Below are positions 57,265 to 64,000 of a stretch of 64,000 bases of DNA, piece by piece; the first letter of the stretch is position 1; every line of letters begins with the position of its first letter. This DNA comes from an uncultured SAR86 cluster bacterium (GTDB lineage Bacteria > Pseudomonadota > Gammaproteobacteria > Magnimaribacterales > TMED112): NCBI GenBank assembly GCA_902563885.1, contig CACEYZ010000001.1:40013-104012 (forward strand). The letters are read 5' to 3'. The position numbers were made by a program, and so were the translations under genes. The notes beneath the pieces are model-generated. The model had not been told where the DNA came from, did no database searches, and saw only the letters and a list, made by a program, of their open reading frames with translations.

Positions 57265-57474
57265 ATGGCAGTACAGAAAAGTAAAAAAACACGCAGTAGA
57301 ATTGGAATGAGGCGGTCACATGATTCTCTCAAAGAAACATCTTTATCAACAGATCCTGTGTCTGGTGAAAGGCATATAAGACATAACTTAAGTGCAGATG
57401 GCTTTTATAAAGGAAGATTAGTAAAAGATCTTAAAAAGAAAGTTAAAGAAACAGAAGAAGAAATTTCACAATAA
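57265..57474 (+). CDS. rpmF: 50S ribosomal protein L32
   Basis: [12 protein letters not shown]...RRSHD N-terminus, 69 aa. Confidence 0.93.
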
Positions 57475-57478
57475 AATC

Positions 57479-58408
57479 ATGAGCTTTTCGTTAATGTTCC
57501 CTGGTCAGGGTTCTCAATATAATGGGATGTTTAAAGAGCATTTTTCTGAATTTATCGAATTTAAAGAAGCTATAGATATTGGAGAAAATTTTTATAAAGA
57601 AAATCTTTCGGAAATAATTTTTAATGATGACGAGAGAATATCTGATACCTTTTATACTCAACCTATATTGCTAATAACGAGCTATGCTTGTTTTAAAGTA
57701 TGGAAAAATAAAGGCTGTCCTGATCCTAAAGTTGCATTAGGGCATAGTTTAGGAGAAGTTTCAGCATACCTATGTTCTGGAGTTCTAAGTTTTGATGATG
57801 CACTAAAATTAATTAGATATAGAGCATCATTCATGATTGAGAGTAAAGGCAATACAAAGACTAAAATGTCCGCTGTTTTAGGTTTAGACCCAGATGAAAT
57901 TGATAAAATTTTGTTAGATAAGAAAAAAAATTTCTTAGAAGCAGTTAATTTTAATTCGCCTTCACAAACTGTAATCGTGGGAAATGCTGATGAAATTGAA
58001 TCCATTAAAGCTGTATTAATTGAAAATGGAGCAAAAAAAATTATAGATCTTTCAGTTTCTGTGCCATCACACTCATCTATGATGAACATGGCAAGCACAA
58101 AATTAAAATTAGCAATGGATGATATTAATTTTAAGAGTCAAAATTTTTCTGTAATAAATAATTTTGATGCAAAAGTATCTCTCACAGAGAGTGAAGTCAA
58201 AGATAAACTTGCAAAACAGATATCCAATCCTGTTCAATGGGTAGACTCTATGAAAAGATTGAAAAAATATAGCATCAAAACACATATTGAATTTGGACCA
58301 GGAAAAGTGTTATCAAGCTTAGCAAAGCATAACAGAGTTGAAGGAGAATTTAATTCTGTAGATAATCTAGAGTTGTTTTTGAAATTATTAGAAGAGTATG
58401 GAAGTTAA
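57479..58408 (+). CDS. fabD: malonyl CoA-ACP transacylase
   Basis: FPGQGSQ N-terminus, active-site GHSLGE, and QPIL motif. Confidence 0.94.
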
Positions 58409-59102
58409 GAAAGTTTTAGTCTCTGGCGGAACAAAAGGAATTGGAGGAGCAATAGTTACCAAATTGCTTGATGAAGGATACTCTGTTATTGCTACGACAA
58501 GAGATAAAACAAAAGCAAATATTCTTGAACATAAAAACTTAACAGTAGAAAACTTAGACTTATCATCTAAAGATTCTGTTTCAGAATTTCAAGAAAAGCT
58601 AGAAAGTTTCAAACCTTCTATTCTCATAAATAATGCGGGAGTTACTAAGGATAATTTATTTCTTCGAATGTCAGAAAATGATTGGACTGAAGTTATAGAA
58701 ACAAATTTAAATGGTACTTACAGGCTGACAAAAATATTTCTCAAAGACATGATTAAAAATAAATGGGGAAGAATAATAAATATTGGTTCTGTTTCAGGTT
58801 TAATGGGAAATCCAGGTCAAACAAATTACGCATCTTCAAAAGCGGCACTTGAGGGCTTTACAAGATCCCTTGCAAAAGAAATTGGATCTAGAAATATAAC
58901 TGTTAACTTAGTTTCTCCAGGATTTATAAATACTGATATGACAAGTGGTTTAACCATCGAAAAGCTTGAAAGCCAAATTCCTTTAGGAAGAATTGGAAAT
59001 CCTTCAGATGTTGCATCACTAGTGGCTTTTCTCGCGAGTGAGGGTGCGGGTTATATTACTGGACAAACATTAGTAGTTGATGGTGGTTTATTTATGCAGT
59101 AA
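58398..59102 (+). CDS. fabG: 3-oxoacyl-ACP reductase
   Basis: SDR motifs (GGTKGIG, NNAG, YASSKAA, PGFI.TDM). fabD-fabG-acpP synteny. Confidence 0.92.
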
Positions 59103-59135
59103 TGTATGCATTACTTAAATTGTTAAGGAGTATAT

Positions 59136-59369
59136 ATGAGTGATGTTCTTAATAAAGTTGTCGATATTGTTTGTGAACAACTAGGTGCAGATAAGGGAGA
59201 TGTAAAATCTGATTCATCTTTTGTTGAAGATCTAGGTGCTGATTCTTTAGATACTGTTGAATTAGTGATGGCATTTGAAGAAGAGTTTGGCCTTGATATT
59301 CCTGATGAAGAAGCAGAAAAAATTACCACAATCCAGAGTGCAGTCGATTGGATCGAAAGTAATAGTTAG
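59136..59369 (+). CDS. acpP: acyl carrier protein
   Basis: [15 protein letters not shown] phosphopantetheine attachment motif, 77 aa, strong AAGGAG Shine-Dalgarno. Confidence 0.97.
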
Positions 59370-60318
59370 AAGACTTCTCTTTTTCCTAACGCTTATTTTT
59401 CTTTTGGGGTTACCAGCCTCAATCAGACTTGTAGAAATTCAAAAAATACCAACTGGTAATAATTTAATTGTTGAAAAAGGGCATGGAATTAATTCAATCA
59501 TTGACAGCCTAAAAAATCGAAACAACAACAAATTTTTAACAATCTTAAAATTAAAATATTTATTTGAGTCTACAAATATTATTCCAGGGAGATACGAAAT
59601 TAAACCAAGCATGACTTATGCTGAATTAATAGAAGATATTTTTGAAGGTAATTTACAGCAATTTAGGTTTACTATTATCGAAGGAACAGTTGCTAAAGAT
59701 GCTTTAAAAAAACTTAGACAAATAATTAAAAACAACAATTTGAATTTCCAAATCTCATCAAAAACTTTAGAAATCTTTTCAAAAGAATCCTTGATATTGC
59801 CAGATACATATTTTTTTACTGATCGACAGCAACTTGAGAGGCTGATGATAAATCAAAAAATAAGATTAGATAATATTCTTACAAGATTATGGGAAAATAA
59901 ACCTAAAGATAATCCATTGAGGACCATGAATGAAGCCTTAGTGCTTGCTTCAATAGTCGAGAGAGAGGCTGCTGTTGAATGGGAGAGAGCACAAATATCA
60001 TCTGTTTTTTTATCAAGGATCAGAGACGGATGGAGACTAGATGCTGACCCAACATTAATTTATGGTTACTACGGTGATTTTTCAAAAAAAATTACAAAAG
60101 AAAATCTTAAGGCTGTCAAAGGGGATAATAACCCTTTCAACACATATAAAATTAAAGGATTACCTCCCAGACCTATTTGTTACCCCTCATTGAGCTCAAT
60201 AAAATCTGTGATAATGTCATCTCCAGGTGAATATTTTTTCTTTGTCGCAAAGGGCGATGGAACTCATATATTCTCAAAAACTTTGGATGAGCATAATAAA
60301 GCTGTAAATAACAGGTAA
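59305..60318 (+). CDS. mltG: endolytic murein transglycosylase MltG (YceG)
   Basis: N-terminal basic segment plus one TM, and the YceG domain ([41 protein letters not shown]). The start is uncertain: every canonical candidate (TTG 59275, ATG 59305, GTG 59338) lies inside acpP. Confidence 0.8.
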
Positions 60319-61753: not shown

Positions 61754-61797
61754 GAGAAAACCAAAAACAAAGGGCTAGTTTTGTCTTTAGTTTTCTC
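61754..61797. terminator. long imperfect hairpin between convergent holB and amtB (candidate bidirectional terminator)
   Basis: 18-nt arms GAGAAAACCAAAAACAAA / TTTGTCTTTAGTTTTCTC pair at 16 of 18 positions, with an 8-nt loop. A/T-rich, with no clean trailing U-run on the plus strand. Confidence 0.45.
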
Positions 61798-63035: not shown

Positions 63036-63632
63036 TTAAAAAGATGCTCCGACTGTAAAGAACAGTCCATCCTCATCCTCTAATCCTGATGCAGCCTCTG
63101 CACTAAAAGAACTATAGCCAACTGAGGCATCATAATCGCCAAGTGAGAAACCATAACCTAGTAAGAAATTACTTCCAGTATCCTCATAGTCACCATAGGA
63201 AACAGAAAAATCACCAAAACCGTATGAAACGTCATAGTAATCTCCAAACTCATCTCCGATGTAATAAGAGAAACCTAAACCTTCATATGAAAAGGCTAAA
63301 TAAACTTCTGAAAAGTCAGCATCGTCTACTTCCGGATAACCGTAATTTATGTAGCCGATATCGTAACCAAGGCCACCTTCACTCTCACCAGAATAGCCAA
63401 AGTATGTATCGAGCTCTAAACCTGCTCCACCGAACGAAACATTTGATCCCCAAGTGCCAGCATAAAAGCCGCTCTCAGAGCTATAATCAAAACCACCACT
63501 GTAGCCGGGAGAATCCATTGTTTGTGTCATCCCTCGCCAGATGTAGTTTGATGAAAAAGTAAAGTTTGAAGATACCTCTCCAAACACATAAGTAGTCAGA
63601 AATAAGACTATAGTCATTATTCCTTTTTTCAT
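63036..63632 (-). CDS. TorF / TIGR02001 (Gcw_chp) family putative outer-membrane beta-barrel
   Basis: Signal peptide, then SSNYIWRGMTQT...P..SGGFDY...GFYAGTWGSNV...ELD.YFGY typical of this uncharacterised family. Ends in an aromatic residue (F). The second ATG (63632) is preferred, because the AAGGAG Shine-Dalgarno abuts the first. Confidence 0.75.
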   Translation of the reverse strand: MKKGIMTIVLFLTTYVFGEVSSNFTFSSNYIWRGMTQTMDSPGYSGGFDYSSESGFYAGTWGSNVSFGGAGLELDTYFGYSGESEGGLGYDIGYINYGYPEVDDADFSEVYLAFSYEGLGFSYYIGDEFGDYYDVSYGFGDFSVSYGDYEDTGSNFLLGYGFSLGDYDASVGYSSFSAEAASGLEDEDGLFFTVGASF

Positions 63633-63700
63633 AAACATCTCCTTACAAAATATAAGTGTGTTAAGAATCTAAAGGGTCAAACCTTCATAGTGTATTGGTG

Positions 63701-63747
63701 CGCGTTCCTTCAGCTTTCACTTACTTCCGTCCCCTAAGGGATGAACG
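63701..63747 (-). promoter_or_regulatory. glutamine-I riboswitch aptamer (glnA RNA motif)
   Basis: The minus strand reads CGUUCAUCCCUUAGGGGACGGAAGUAAGUGAAAGCUGAAGGAACGCG. It shows P1 CGUUC/GAACG, hairpin UCCC-UUA-GGGA, and the conserved ACGGAAGUA and CUGAAGGAACGCG segments of the glnA motif. It lies 68 nt upstream of the porin start codon. Confidence 0.8.
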
Positions 63748-63770
63748 ATTAAGACGCTGCTCCTTTATTA

Positions 63771-63836
63771 CCATGGAGTATGGTTTAACTTTTAACCCAT
63801 GTTATATGGGCTCCTTTTAACCCATGGAGTATGGGG
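63771..63836. repeat. array of three near-identical CCAT-N5-ATGG hairpins/palindromes
   Basis: CCATGGAGTATGG (63771-63783), CCCATGTTATATGGG (63796-63810) and CCCATGGAGTATGGG (63821-63835). Centres are 26 and 25 bp apart. A flanking direct repeat TTTTAACCCATG occurs at 63790 and 63815. Confidence 0.6.
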
Positions 63837-63883
63837 ATGTAAACATCTTCTTTATAAACACAATTTATAAATTAACATTCTCA

Positions 63884-63912
63884 AATTTAATATCTTATAA
63901 AATATTTGTCAA
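63884..63912 (-). promoter_or_regulatory. candidate sigma-70 promoter for the riboswitch-porin-amtB transcript
   Basis: On the minus strand: TTGACA (63912-63907), 17 nt spacer, then TAAATT (63889-63884). Confidence is weak because the background is AT-rich. Confidence 0.3.
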
Positions 63913-63952: not shown

Positions 63953-64000
63953 ATGTTTTCAGAAGATTCACATAAAGATAGTTGTGGAACAGGTATATTA
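63953..64000 (+). CDS. gltB: glutamate synthase large subunit, first 16 codons only
   Basis: MFSEDSHKDSCGTGIL resembles the GltB N-terminus, with a short propeptide followed by the catalytic Cys in a D.CG.G motif. Preceded by a GGA Shine-Dalgarno. Only 48 nt are visible. Confidence 0.5.
   Translation, partial: MFSEDSHKDSCGTGIL

Follow-up and report, generated by a model that had tools for sequence, protein, structure and literature searches.

The leader of a porin-amtB operon in a SAR86 cluster bacterium carries what is, by family match, a canonical type 1 (glnA-motif) glutamine-binding aptamer (63749-63699, minus strand), and this aptamer is preceded by a conserved array of three predicted pseudoknots and followed by a conserved element that is complementary to strands of two of them. 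We lean towards reading the whole leader, approximately 245 nt long, as a cis-acting glutamine OFF switch in which the aptamer toggles two folds, and the array and the complementary element probably form part of that switch. Glutamine riboswitches demonstrated so far come from cyanobacteria only, where they are ON switches for glutamine synthetase inactivating factors. A copy in SAR86 suggests that a major uncultured heterotroph, with an AT-rich, streamlined genome, may sense nitrogen by means of RNA. All positions refer to the window, the 64,000-nt stretch of DNA that was analysed, and the features are collected in Table 1.

The original prediction of a glnA-motif glutamine aptamer on the minus strand was borne out by covariance-model search. 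When the whole 64 kb window was run through Rfam cmscan, RF01739 ("Glutamine") matched with 65.2 bits, well over its gathering score of 35 (E-value 3.5e-12), was covered end to end (model positions 1-53 of 53), and was the sole Rfam family at or above its gathering score. All upper-case consensus positions of RF01739 are matched in the window aptamer (AUCGUUCAUCCCUUAGGGGACGGAAGUAAGUGAAAGCUGAAGGAACGCGCA). Helix P1 (CGUUC, 63747-63743, with GAACG, 63707-63703) closes a three-way arrangement with two hairpins, UCCC-UUAG-GGGA (63741-63730) and AGU-GAAA-GCU (63721-63712), and with conserved junction strands (CGUUCA, ACGGAAGUA, and GAAGGAACGC) that are invariant in 20 homologous leaders. P1 and the UCCC/GGGA stem had thus been described correctly, while the loop of that stem is UUAG, one base longer than the UUA proposed. 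The spacing of 68 nt to the gene was also right, since the start codon at 63632 lies 68 nt past the aptamer end then given; counted from the end of the Rfam match, the porin start codon is 66 nt away on the same strand. C63702 is the counterpart of the conserved C beside P1, which in this class pairs long-range upon glutamine binding (PMC6212724). We infer that the window copy binds L-glutamine.

Comparison among homologues adds to the family match. The aptamer is kept at the same position in 35 homologous loci from genomes and metagenomes and is present in every fetched locus of the window's lineage; in L001 and L007, for example, the RF01739 element scores 58.9-66.4 bits. In the second hairpin each of the three pairs covaries (AU/GU/GC, GC/AU, and CG/UG/UA), and one of them is seen as U.G, C-G, and U-A inside a single population. 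The first hairpin is variable in length and sequence and retains UCC...GGA, and P1 is invariant and hence uninformative on covariation.

Table 1. Positions and basis of the features of the porin-amtB leader and the neighbouring genes
Feature	Position	Strand	Basis or detail
Divergent gltB start (glutamate synthase large subunit), MFSEDSHKDSCGTGIL...	63953..64000	plus	translation; cut by window end
Predicted sigma-70-like promoter, TTGACA-17 nt-TAAATT	63884..63912	minus	consensus scan, 10/12 matches
AT-rich conserved block, TTTATAAA-TTGTG-TTTATAAA	63851..63871	minus	two self-complementary octamers between predicted -10 and pseudoknot 1
Predicted pseudoknot unit 1, CCCAU-A-CUCC-AUGGG-UUAAAA-GGAG	63811..63835	minus	sequence, unit alignment
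Predicted pseudoknot unit 2, CCCAU-A-UAAC-AUGGG-UUAAAA-GUUA	63786..63810	minus	sequence, unit alignment
Predicted pseudoknot unit 3, ACCAU-A-CUCC-AUGGU-AAUAAA-GGAG	63760..63784	minus	sequence, unit alignment
Glutamine riboswitch aptamer type 1 (glnA motif, RF01739)	63699..63749	minus	Rfam cmscan, 65.2 bits
Conserved 3' element	63671..63690	minus	CUAUG (63690-63686), variable 2-5 nt, GGUUUGAC (63683-63676), CCUUU (63675-63671)
Shine-Dalgarno AAGGAG of porin gene	63639..63644	minus	start codon 63632-63630
TorF/Gcw_chp family putative outer-membrane porin, 198 aa, signal peptide	63036..63632	minus	TIGR02001, PF09694
Ammonium transporter AmtB, marine subtype, 406 aa	61806..63026	minus	TIGR03644, PF00909
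Terminator-like hairpin closing porin-amtB unit	61754..61797	minus	

The location of the aptamer in a porin-amtB leader held good, as the TIGR02001 and TIGR03644 genes lie directly downstream. The porin gene product scores 97.8 bits with TIGR02001 (cut-off 47.15) and 70.2 bits with PF09694 (cut-off 24), and public gene calls also give a 198-aa porin starting at the ATG at 63632. The amtB product scores 543.1 bits with TIGR03644, against an equivalog cut-off of 514, and 293 bits with PF00909. At the site equivalent to the divergent gltB, full-length GltB (GATase_2, Glu_syn_central, Glu_synthase, GXGXG) is found in L097, L099, L137, and L143-L152. In one locus (L084) the porin is missing and the same leader lies immediately before amtB, so the leader goes with amtB. 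The gammaproteobacterial host that had been proposed is a member of the SAR86 cluster (Gammaproteobacteria), because the closest genome matches are SAR86 cluster genomes and single-cell assemblies, and because the synteny amtB-holB-tmk-mltG-acpP-fabG is conserved with SAR86 loci. Other SAR86 lineages have glnK directly upstream of amtB and lack the leader (in L002, for example, PII is detected at 92.5 bits), whereas the window's lineage has the porin gene and the riboswitch leader there, that is, in the position held by glnK in its sister lineages. If the leader is indeed the bistable expression platform considered below, ammonium uptake in SAR86, a heterotrophic clade that ranks among the most abundant in surface seawater, would be under a PII-independent, RNA-only nitrogen sensor.

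Neither the ammonium-transporter setting nor the occurrence in SAR86 is new in itself, and the novelty at first implied for them was overstated. Ammonium transporters were already listed among the genes associated with glnA RNAs in marine metagenomes when the motif was first described in 2010 (PMC2864571); the genes that follow the marine glnA RNAs of Weinberg et al. 2010 include those for ammonium transporters, PII, glutamate synthase, and glnA (PMC2864571), and RF01739 in SAR86 MAGs was mentioned in 2025 (PMC12379486). The aptamer therefore adds taxonomic information and is not a new class. The key paper on glutamine riboswitches describes the class as exclusive to cyanobacterial genomes, and Klaehn et al. 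2018 stated the taxonomic affiliation and the polarity of the marine-metagenome glnA RNAs as unknown. Like the marine reads of Weinberg et al. 2010, the window element is marine, amt-linked, and adjoins glutamate synthase, and it very likely belongs to the same population as their amt-linked glnA RNAs. Those reads came without a host, whereas the host lineage, the operon structure, and the extended leader are defined here, so that, among the orphan marine copies, at least the group linked to amt and carrying this leader now has a host. What is newly described is the leader around the aptamer, whose array makes a tangible candidate for a new type of expression platform.

Among the closest known systems is the leader of Synechocystis gifB, a cyanobacterial type 1 riboswitch (RF01739) that shares the aptamer family and the cis position in the 5' leader of a nitrogen gene. 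However, the host here is a heterotrophic gammaproteobacterium, the genes encode a porin and AmtB, not a glutamine synthetase inactivating factor, and the polarity that we would expect is OFF, whereas gifB is ON (PMC6212724). The window aptamer also differs from the glnA motif as described in being flanked by the three-pseudoknot array and the complementary 3' element. The type 2 glutamine riboswitch (Downstream-peptide, RF01704) begins with the same CGUUCA-hairpin and has the same ligand; RF01704 reaches 14.9 bits against a gathering score of 33 and aligns over its first 26 model positions only, so the window aptamer is not a member of that family.

From the promoter-like site, transcription is predicted to start near 63877, approximately 40 nt upstream of pseudoknot 1, which would give the leader its length of approximately 245 nt and place the beginning of the aptamer approximately 135 nt into it. 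TTGAC and the -10 region hold their position in L001 and L007. Between the -10 region and the array, the AT-rich block may be an operator common with the divergent gltB, or may mark the 5' end of the leader. At the other end, the porin Shine-Dalgarno is invariant in the leader alignments. As had been noted from the start, no canonical terminator separates the aptamer from the porin gene in the window, and an intrinsic terminator was rejected as a general read-out: a run of U (8-9 nt, following GGUUUGACCC) occurs in L007-type leaders only and is not conserved. Two segments had been put forward as competitors for the Shine-Dalgarno. The UCCCUU of the aptamer cannot be a conserved anti-Shine-Dalgarno element, because it is not conserved (relatives have UCC-AAUAC-GGA and other variants). 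The downstream CCCUU holds up, being conserved as a portion of GGUUUGACCCUUU.

While the original prediction recognized the aptamer, it overlooked the array upstream and the complementarity between the array and the 3' element. The array (63835-63760) consists of three tandem 25-nt predicted H-type pseudoknots of common geometry: 5 bp, 1 nt, 4 bp, 0 nt, and an A-rich 6-nt loop. In unit 1, the loop of the 5-bp stem 1 contains CUCC, which pairs with the downstream GGAG, and the A-rich 6-nt loop crosses stem 1. Unit 2 repeats this geometry with UAAC:GUUA in place of CUCC:GGAG as stem 2. Pseudoknot pairing is predicted chiefly from this compensatory change relative to units 1 and 3; the covariation is between paralogous units, the orthologues being invariant. 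In the unit alignment, 98.5% of cells are paired and four of the nine pairs have two-sided changes between units; the pairing score was reached by none of 500 shuffles, and slid controls were 25-44% paired. The pseudoknot stems do not vary in the 20 leaders. Across lineages the array is 95-99% identical, a conservation that exceeds the aptamer's (66-92% in the same comparison; the HolB protein, 33-38%). A generic scan gave no other chains of adjacent units in the window or in 40 shuffles and, among the matches listed, no further chain in 1.15 Mb of other loci, and two pattern scans of viral contigs for pseudoknot units gave chance matches and no array. Rfam 15 holds no credible match to 63760-63835 at E ≤ 10, the best being the viral UPD pseudoknot with 13.4 bits against 38.

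On the DNA level, the same CCCAT-N5-ATGGG hairpins could be read as operators for a dimeric transcription factor acting on the gltB and porin-amtB promoters, and not as RNA structure. They form three 15-bp palindromes approximately 25 bp apart in a 315-bp divergent intergenic region, which separates two nitrogen-assimilation transcription units, and the pseudoknot stems have no G.U pairs, so that they read the same on both strands. However, a DNA operator leaves unexplained both the complementarity of each loop to 4 nt lying exactly 6 nt past each hairpin and the switch of pairing in unit 2 from CUCC/GGAG to UAAC/GUUA. The loop lengths (1 nt, and the A-rich 6 nt) suit an H-type pseudoknot on the porin-sense strand only, and the array lies downstream of the conserved promoter-like site. 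Given the pairing changes between units and the loop geometry, we judge the operator reading very unlikely.

The predicted RNA pseudoknots have well-known counterparts in shape. PreQ1-I, SAM-II, and SAM-V are small H-type pseudoknot riboswitch aptamers or platforms, and the units are like them in being compact H-type pseudoknots with an A-rich loop and a stem 2 that involves a Shine-Dalgarno-like GGAG. By analogy, the A-rich loop of each unit could lie in the groove of stem 1. The likeness is one of shape only, as the array has no inter-stem loop for a ligand pocket and comes as three tandem units.

Downstream of the aptamer, the 3' element (CUAUG...GGUUUGACCCUUU) is complementary to strands of pseudoknots 2 and 3. 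Its GGUUUGAC is complementary to GUUAAACC (63789-63782), giving helix P0, and its CUAUG to CAUGG (63775-63771), giving helix P0'. The 3' strand GUUA of unit 2 doubles as part of this alternative long-range pairing, and the strands ACC (63784-63782) and CAUGG of unit 3 are also in P0 and P0'. The remaining CCUUU is able to pair with AAAGG in the first porin codons or in the Shine-Dalgarno region. In every leader, P0 (and P0') is predicted independently by RNAalifold and by RNAfold minimum-free-energy folding, and 99.6% of cells are paired over the 20 leaders, with all six varying pairs changed on one side and the pairing kept. The substitutions comprise GA>AG facing UU, C>U facing G, and three cases of A>G facing U, and leader length changes are confined to predicted internal loops. 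The G.U pairs of P0 and P0' exist on the porin-sense strand only. Segments with dual use (UUAAAA-GUUA in unit 2 and the CCAU/CUCC/AUGG cores in unit 3) never vary, and the matching loop positions of unit 1 do vary. A change of GGUUUGAC to GGAAAGAC would be expected to break P0.

Several points bear on how this pairing should be read. As no P0/P0' pair has a two-sided change in the 20 leaders, its support is compatibility and not covariation. Part of the invariance of the 3' element is by construction, since the metagenome search pattern demanded GGTTTGACC; the bias-free loci are the protein-anchored L137, L141, and L142. A second register, GGGUUAAA with UUUGACCC, fits as well as P0/P0'. An extension of P0 by CAUA:UAUG was dropped, as RNAfold gives CAUGG with CUAUG instead, and a pairing of the 3' flank of P1 with GGAG of unit 3 (plus linker), found in every leader type, is no better than with shuffled flanks (p = 0.07-0.55).

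Could the conservation of CUAUG reflect translation? A short upstream ORF from its AUG (63688; AUG AAG GUU UGA) might open the porin start region when translated; 20 of the 20 leaders have AUG or GUG there, and the GA-to-AG swap in L137 converts the in-frame UGA to UAG. However, there is no Shine-Dalgarno within 15 nt upstream, and P0' pairing accounts for the same conservation. Lineages differ by insertions of 1, 2, or 3 nt between the AUG and GGUUUGA, which change the frame and leave both the peptide and the place of the stop unconserved; with the frame not conserved we rejected this ORF, which we give hardly any chance.

A more serious contender, though in our view an unlikely one, is that the riboswitch is real and the array a separate module whose complementarity to the 3' element is incidental. 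The module could serve as a platform for a protein or the 30S subunit, CUCC masking two decoy AAAGGAG sites, or it could stabilise the 5' end against RNases. Unit 1 lies outside P0 and P0' and is equally invariant, CUCC:GGAG resembles an anti-Shine-Dalgarno:Shine-Dalgarno helix, double compensation is missing from P0 and P0', and sequence invariance above the aptamer's is typical of sites read by proteins or ribosomes. Against this, units 2 and 3 contain strands that are exact complements of CUAUG..GGUUUGAC, the leader's only other invariant block, and five of five observed substitution types keep the P0/P0' pairs. In addition, an array without an aptamer was never found in the 1.15 Mb of loci (among the matches listed) or in viral contigs.

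Since the 3' element can pair with strands that pseudoknots 2 and 3 also use, two alternative folds are open to the leader, each precluding the other. In state A the three pseudoknots would be formed and the 3' element free; in state B, P0 and P0' would be formed around the aptamer, with pseudoknots 2 and 3 undone. Both folds are compatible with all 20 aligned leader variants. We propose that at low glutamine the long-range stack would hold the 3' element and continue toward a short helix beside P1, leaving the ribosome-binding region usable, so that porin and AmtB would be made. With glutamine bound, the conserved C beside P1 would be drawn into the aptamer core and the P1-proximal helix would melt; the stack would then unzip and its 5' strands snap into pseudoknots 2 and 3. 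The freed pyrimidine-rich tail CCCUUU could pair with the Shine-Dalgarno and first codons, and less translation would follow.

The OFF polarity of this model has two sources. Judging from Ntr/PII control of glnK-amtB, a cell rich in nitrogen should have its ammonium uptake genes turned off. In this riboswitch class, glutamine binding is reported to melt the helix attached to P1 (PMC6212724). The repressing polarity put forward in the original prediction is thus a reasonable candidate. The read-out, too, we infer to be translational, as opposed to termination or decay.

The same functional aptamer might instead work with opposite polarity, with glutamine switching translation of porin-amtB ON in the manner of cyanobacterial gifB. 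The CCCUUU tail could, for instance, be bound by the A-rich and GGAG strands of unit 3 once these are free, which would open the ribosome-binding hairpin. Glutamine riboswitches of measured polarity, namely the cyanobacterial gifB type 1 and the Prochlorococcus type 2, are all ON switches (PMC6212724). In the minimum-free-energy folds of both states, CCCUUU and the start region form a hairpin, which something must then open, and when the start region is left out of the construct, CCUUU pairs with AAAGG of unit 1. However, modelling shows no accessibility difference either way, which tells against the OFF model as well: in constrained ViennaRNA folding of 15-16 leaders, with models that cannot score pseudoknot stem 2, accessibility of the Shine-Dalgarno and start codon did not change consistently between states A and B or between P1 forced and not. 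An importer of ammonium made at high glutamine also contradicts the known nitrogen control of amtB; production of AmtB under such conditions would, to our knowledge, be contrary to all known nitrogen control. We therefore consider an ON switch quite improbable and retain OFF as the working polarity. The nested fold of the leader is not unusually stable (z = -1.5 sense, -1.0 antisense).

If the OFF switch works, its output would be that of NtrC/PII (glnK-amtB), in which amtB expression is tied to the nitrogen status reported by glutamine. NtrC/PII control is protein-based, whereas the candidate control here is RNA-based. We more tentatively suggest, at clearly short of even chances, that the array and the 3' element are an undescribed expression platform in which glutamine chooses between the pseudoknot-array fold and the long-range-helix fold, and that this would be the first glutamine OFF switch. 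In a bolder version, the array would itself sense a further ligand or the ribosome and, with the glutamine aptamer, make up a two-input gate. A compact, defined construct of 190 nt is offered for asking whether this aptamer class can repress.

Elsewhere in SAR86, a second copy of the glutamine riboswitch precedes the gene for a DUF4278 (IF17-like) small protein, which hints at parts of the cyanobacterial glutamine regulon in these heterotrophs.

The leader upstream of the porin and amtB genes combines a known glutamine riboswitch aptamer with surroundings that make its architecture a new variant. The aptamer matches RF01739 (glutamine riboswitch aptamer, glnA leader) at 65.2 bits against a gathering score of 35 (E = 3.5e-12, Rfam 15 cmscan), with 53 of 53 model positions and every consensus nucleotide matched, and RF01739 is the only family above its gathering score in the whole window. 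The Glutamine-II model remained below threshold on the aptamer (14.9 bits, gathering score 33). The aptamer is an ordinary RF01739 member, and a new, well-placed copy of a known class. The glnA-motif identification in the original prediction, made from sequence alone, is borne out by this score and by coverage of the full model, the covariance-model search that it had proposed having come out above the gathering score; its coordinates and strand agree with the sequence and the match, and the distance of 68 nt from aptamer to first gene is right. Its helices are also right, except that the first hairpin loop is UUAG rather than UUA. In the work of Weinberg et al. (2010, PMC2864571) that first described the motif, marine metagenome copies were already linked to ammonium transporter genes. 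Klaehn et al. 2018 (PMC6212724) describe glutamine riboswitches as occurring "exclusively" in the genomes of cyanobacteria; elsewhere they list only sequences from marine metagenomes, whose taxonomic affiliation and regulatory sign they call unknown. A 2025 long-read study mentions RF01739 without analysis within deletions in SAR86 MAGs (PMC12379486), and copies are reported from pelagiphage and OM43 phage genomes (PMC9004378). The rarity outside cyanobacteria that had been supposed is partly outdated. For the pseudoknot array and the extended leader, we found no prior description in the open-access full-text literature.

Features of the leader and its operon (window coordinates)
Feature	Position	Strand	Sequence or basis
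Sigma-70-like site, strong, predicted	63912-63884	-	TTGACA-17 nt-TAAATT; position conserved in relatives
Array unit 1	63835-63811	-	CCCAU-A-CUCC-AUGGG-UUAAAA-GGAG
Array unit 2	63810-63786	-	CCCAU-A-UAAC-AUGGG-UUAAAA-GUUA
Array unit 3	63784-63760	-	ACCAU-A-CUCC-AUGGU-AAUAAA-GGAG
Aptamer	63749-63699	-	AUCGUUCAUCCCUUAGGGGACGGAAGUAAGUGAAAGCUGAAGGAACGCGCA
Shine-Dalgarno of porin gene	63644-63639	-	AAGGAG; sequence; downstream of aptamer
Porin start ATG	63632	-	sequence
Gene 1, TorF/Gcw_chp family putative porin	63632-63036	-	TIGR02001 97.8 bits, PF09694 70.2 bits
Gene 2, "marine subtype" ammonium transporter (amtB)	63026-61806	-	TIGR03644 543 bits vs cut-off 514
Polymorphic sites of 11 copies	63714, 63719, 63737, 63880, 63897, 63928

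The two genes are followed by a terminator-like hairpin 3' of amtB. The divergent upstream gene is gltB, of which the first 16 codons lie at the window end, and a full-length glutamate synthase occupies this position in every related contig. Because of the sigma-70-like site in the gltB-porin intergenic region (about 315 nt), the leader is predicted to be ~245 nt long, with the aptamer starting ~130 nt into it. Between the predicted -10 and pseudoknot 1, in the region common with the divergent gltB promoter, an AT-rich conserved block contains two self-complementary octamers (TTTATAAA-TTGTG-TTTATAAA, 63851-63871, minus strand), and may be an operator or a structured 5' end of the leader.

In leader alignments A1, A2 and A4, conservation is highest not in the aptamer but in the 76-nt stretch just upstream of it (63835-63760). 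This array is 95-99% identical in lineages in which the aptamer is 66-92% identical, and in which the proteins HolB and Tmk are 33-38% and 51-57% identical, respectively. It consists of three 25-nt units arranged head-to-tail, each of which can fold as an H-type pseudoknot. The first stem has 5 bp and the first loop 1 nt; the hairpin loop pairs with the 3' flank in a second stem of 4 bp, and a further, A-rich loop has 6 nt. Across 15 distinct aligned unit sequences, 98.5% of cells are paired, and four of the nine pairs show two-sided changes (CUCC/GGAG vs UAAC/GUUA, and C-G vs A-U in stem 1). This level of covariation was not reached in any of 500 shuffles, and slid controls paired at 25-44%. 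The positions that vary among orthologues are exactly the unpaired ones, namely the first loop nucleotide, nucleotides 1-2 of the unit 1 A-rich loop, and the spacer that separates unit 2 from unit 3. Pseudoknot pairing of the units, judged from these patterns of substitution, is well supported. A scan for the generic geometry returned single chance units elsewhere; neither the window, 40 shuffles nor the other 1.15 Mb of loci gave a further chain of adjacent units. No Rfam family matched the array by cmscan, and pattern scans found no such arrangement in viral contigs. The only model touching it at E <= 10 was RF01108 (63784-63813, minus strand), the plant-virus "upstream pseudoknot domain" pseudoknot. 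The viral domain is, like the array, a run of tandem pseudoknots; as an identity for the array, RF01108 was rejected as a chance-level match (13.4 bits vs 38, E = 5.3).

A second conserved block lies downstream of the aptamer. This 3' element (63690-63671) reads CUAUG, 2-5 variable nucleotides, and then GGUUUGAC-CCUUU. RNAalifold on 18 leaders, and single-sequence minimum-free-energy folds of six representatives covering each leader type, predict two long-range helices. In P0, GGUUUGAC pairs with GUUAAACC (63789-63782), which comprises the 3' strand of the unit 2 second stem and the 5' strand of the unit 3 first stem; in P0', CUAUG pairs with CAUGG (63775-63771), the 3' strand of the unit 3 first stem. 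Together they would enclose the aptamer and be mutually exclusive with pseudoknots 2 and 3. Their 13 pairs are 99.6% paired over 20 leaders. Six of these pairs vary, always on one side and with the pair kept (GA to AG opposite UU in homologous locus L137, C to U opposite G in L142, and A to G opposite U in L141 and in L083/L088), and no two-sided change occurs among the 20 leaders. P0 and P0' contain G.U pairs, which exist on the porin-sense strand only, and length changes fall only within the predicted internal loop. Segments serving both folds are invariant, while the equivalent loop positions vary in unit 1, which has no second partner. A shifted register, GGGUUAAA with UUUGACCC, fits as well as P0, and the stability of the nested fold is not unusual (z = -1.5). 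Part of the invariance of the 3' element is also built in, since the metagenome scan selected leaders for GGTTTGACC. From these comparisons, P0/P0' is plausible but unproven.

Structural work on this class, reviewed in Klaehn et al. 2018, shows that glutamine binding forms a long-range G-C pair through the conserved C immediately 3' of P1, and that a short helix adjoining P1 melts. For Synechocystis gifB, the proposed consequence is a freed ribosome-binding site and so an ON switch (PMC6212724). In the window, the conserved C is C63702. Directly 3' of P1, the nucleotides CGC... are able to pair with the unit 3 linker and GGAG (GAGCG with CGCUU in the L007 type of leader, GG.GC with GC.CC in the window), and these short duplexes are no better than shuffled controls; such pairing would extend the P0/P0' stack up to P1. 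The best model would be a bistable leader. At low glutamine, the 3' element would be held in the long-range stack and translation permitted; at high glutamine, C63702 would be captured, the stack would unzip from its P1 end, and the 5' strands would collapse into pseudoknots 2 and 3, locking the decision. The released tail CCCUUU could then pair with the start region, with repression by glutamine as the net outcome. Every minimum-free-energy fold has CCCUUU paired to AAAGG(G/A) of porin codons 2-4; constrained folding gave no consistent accessibility difference between the two leader states, and the model assigns pseudoknot 1 no role. For an ammonium importer, nitrogen physiology demands repression by glutamine. 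Where polarity has been measured, in gifB type 1 and in the type 2 of Prochlorococcus, the switch is ON in each case (PMC6212724). On this model the SAR86-borne copy, set in an invariant triple-pseudoknot platform, is likely OFF-acting, and the question of polarity becomes directly testable with a ~250-nt construct.

The host lineage is seen in the AmtB protein scan (one genome per GTDB species), in which the top two matches were a "Gammaproteobacteria bacterium" MAG (L001, 77%) and SAR86 cluster bacterium AG-349-I13 (L007, 69%), with further SAR86 genomes at about 60%; NCBI files the SAR86 cluster under Gammaproteobacteria. The gene order amtB-(amidase)-holB-tmk-mltG-acpP-fabG is common to the window and the best-matching genomes. 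Among the best 80 AmtB loci of GTDB genomes, the aptamer stands upstream of amtB only in L001 and L007. A metagenome pattern scan requiring GGTTTGACC in each leader gave 16 more leader loci, and AmtB-anchored look-ups added L097-L099, L137, L138, L141 and L142. In L101, L102, L139 and L140 (AmtB 73-76% identity, different synteny), the leader is absent or cut off at the contig end, L102 having an ordinary 60-nt spacer upstream of amtB. More distant SAR86 genomes carry glnK-amtB without the leader, such as L002 (PII 92.5 bits). In the metagenomic lineage L084 (L084:1967-2198 and downstream), the porin gene is missing and a complete leader (pseudoknots, aptamer and 3' element) runs directly into amtB, and therefore the leader goes with amtB. 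Its 3'-element tail is changed to CCUUUC, in which CUUUC is able to pair with GGAAG where amtB begins.

An AmtB protein identical to the window's is present in 96 blocks of public assemblies, with many Tara Oceans metagenomes and NCBI GCA_902601425.1 among them, and therefore belongs to a widespread population. Across the 330-nt intergenic region, 11 near-identical copies of the locus, taken from different samples, differ at just six sites: three belong to the promoter region, one to the loop of the first aptamer hairpin, and two form both sides of one second-hairpin base pair (U.G, C-G, U-A). The pseudoknot array, 3' element and ribosome-binding region are free of polymorphism.

Several further observations concern the surroundings of these loci. 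A second SAR86 glutamine riboswitch context occurs in the uncultured single-cell genome AG-914-F13 (L002:5318-5677, CACIUX010000011.1), where it lies 3' of glnK-amtB, beyond a terminator and a TATAAT box; it matches RF01739 at 39.4 bits with a ~90-nt insertion in the second hairpin. It is followed by a 53-aa ORF (MTTYYRGVEV...YRG...YRG). DUF4278, the IF17/gifB-like family under glutamine riboswitch control in cyanobacteria, is matched along its entire length by this ORF, whose score of 24.0 bits (E = 5e-5) narrowly misses the 25.3 cut-off. In some lineages, amtB and holB are separated by a same-strand amidase gene (PF01425; L097:4346-5845, L137:3866-5374), which may be a third gene under the porin-amtB leader. 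L099 is near-identical to the window in its leader, with porin 97% and HolB 96% identical, but AmtB only 79%, pointing to recombination or an allelic replacement that affected amtB alone. The window has a G+C content of 32.9% and tightly packed genes. Its fab cluster (57265-60318, plus strand), named from ORF translations and Pfam labels on homologous contigs, has the order rpmF-fabD-fabG-acpP-mltG, lacking plsX and fabH after rpmF and fabF after acpP, a reduced version of the usual gammaproteobacterial cluster that is consistent with a streamlined genome.
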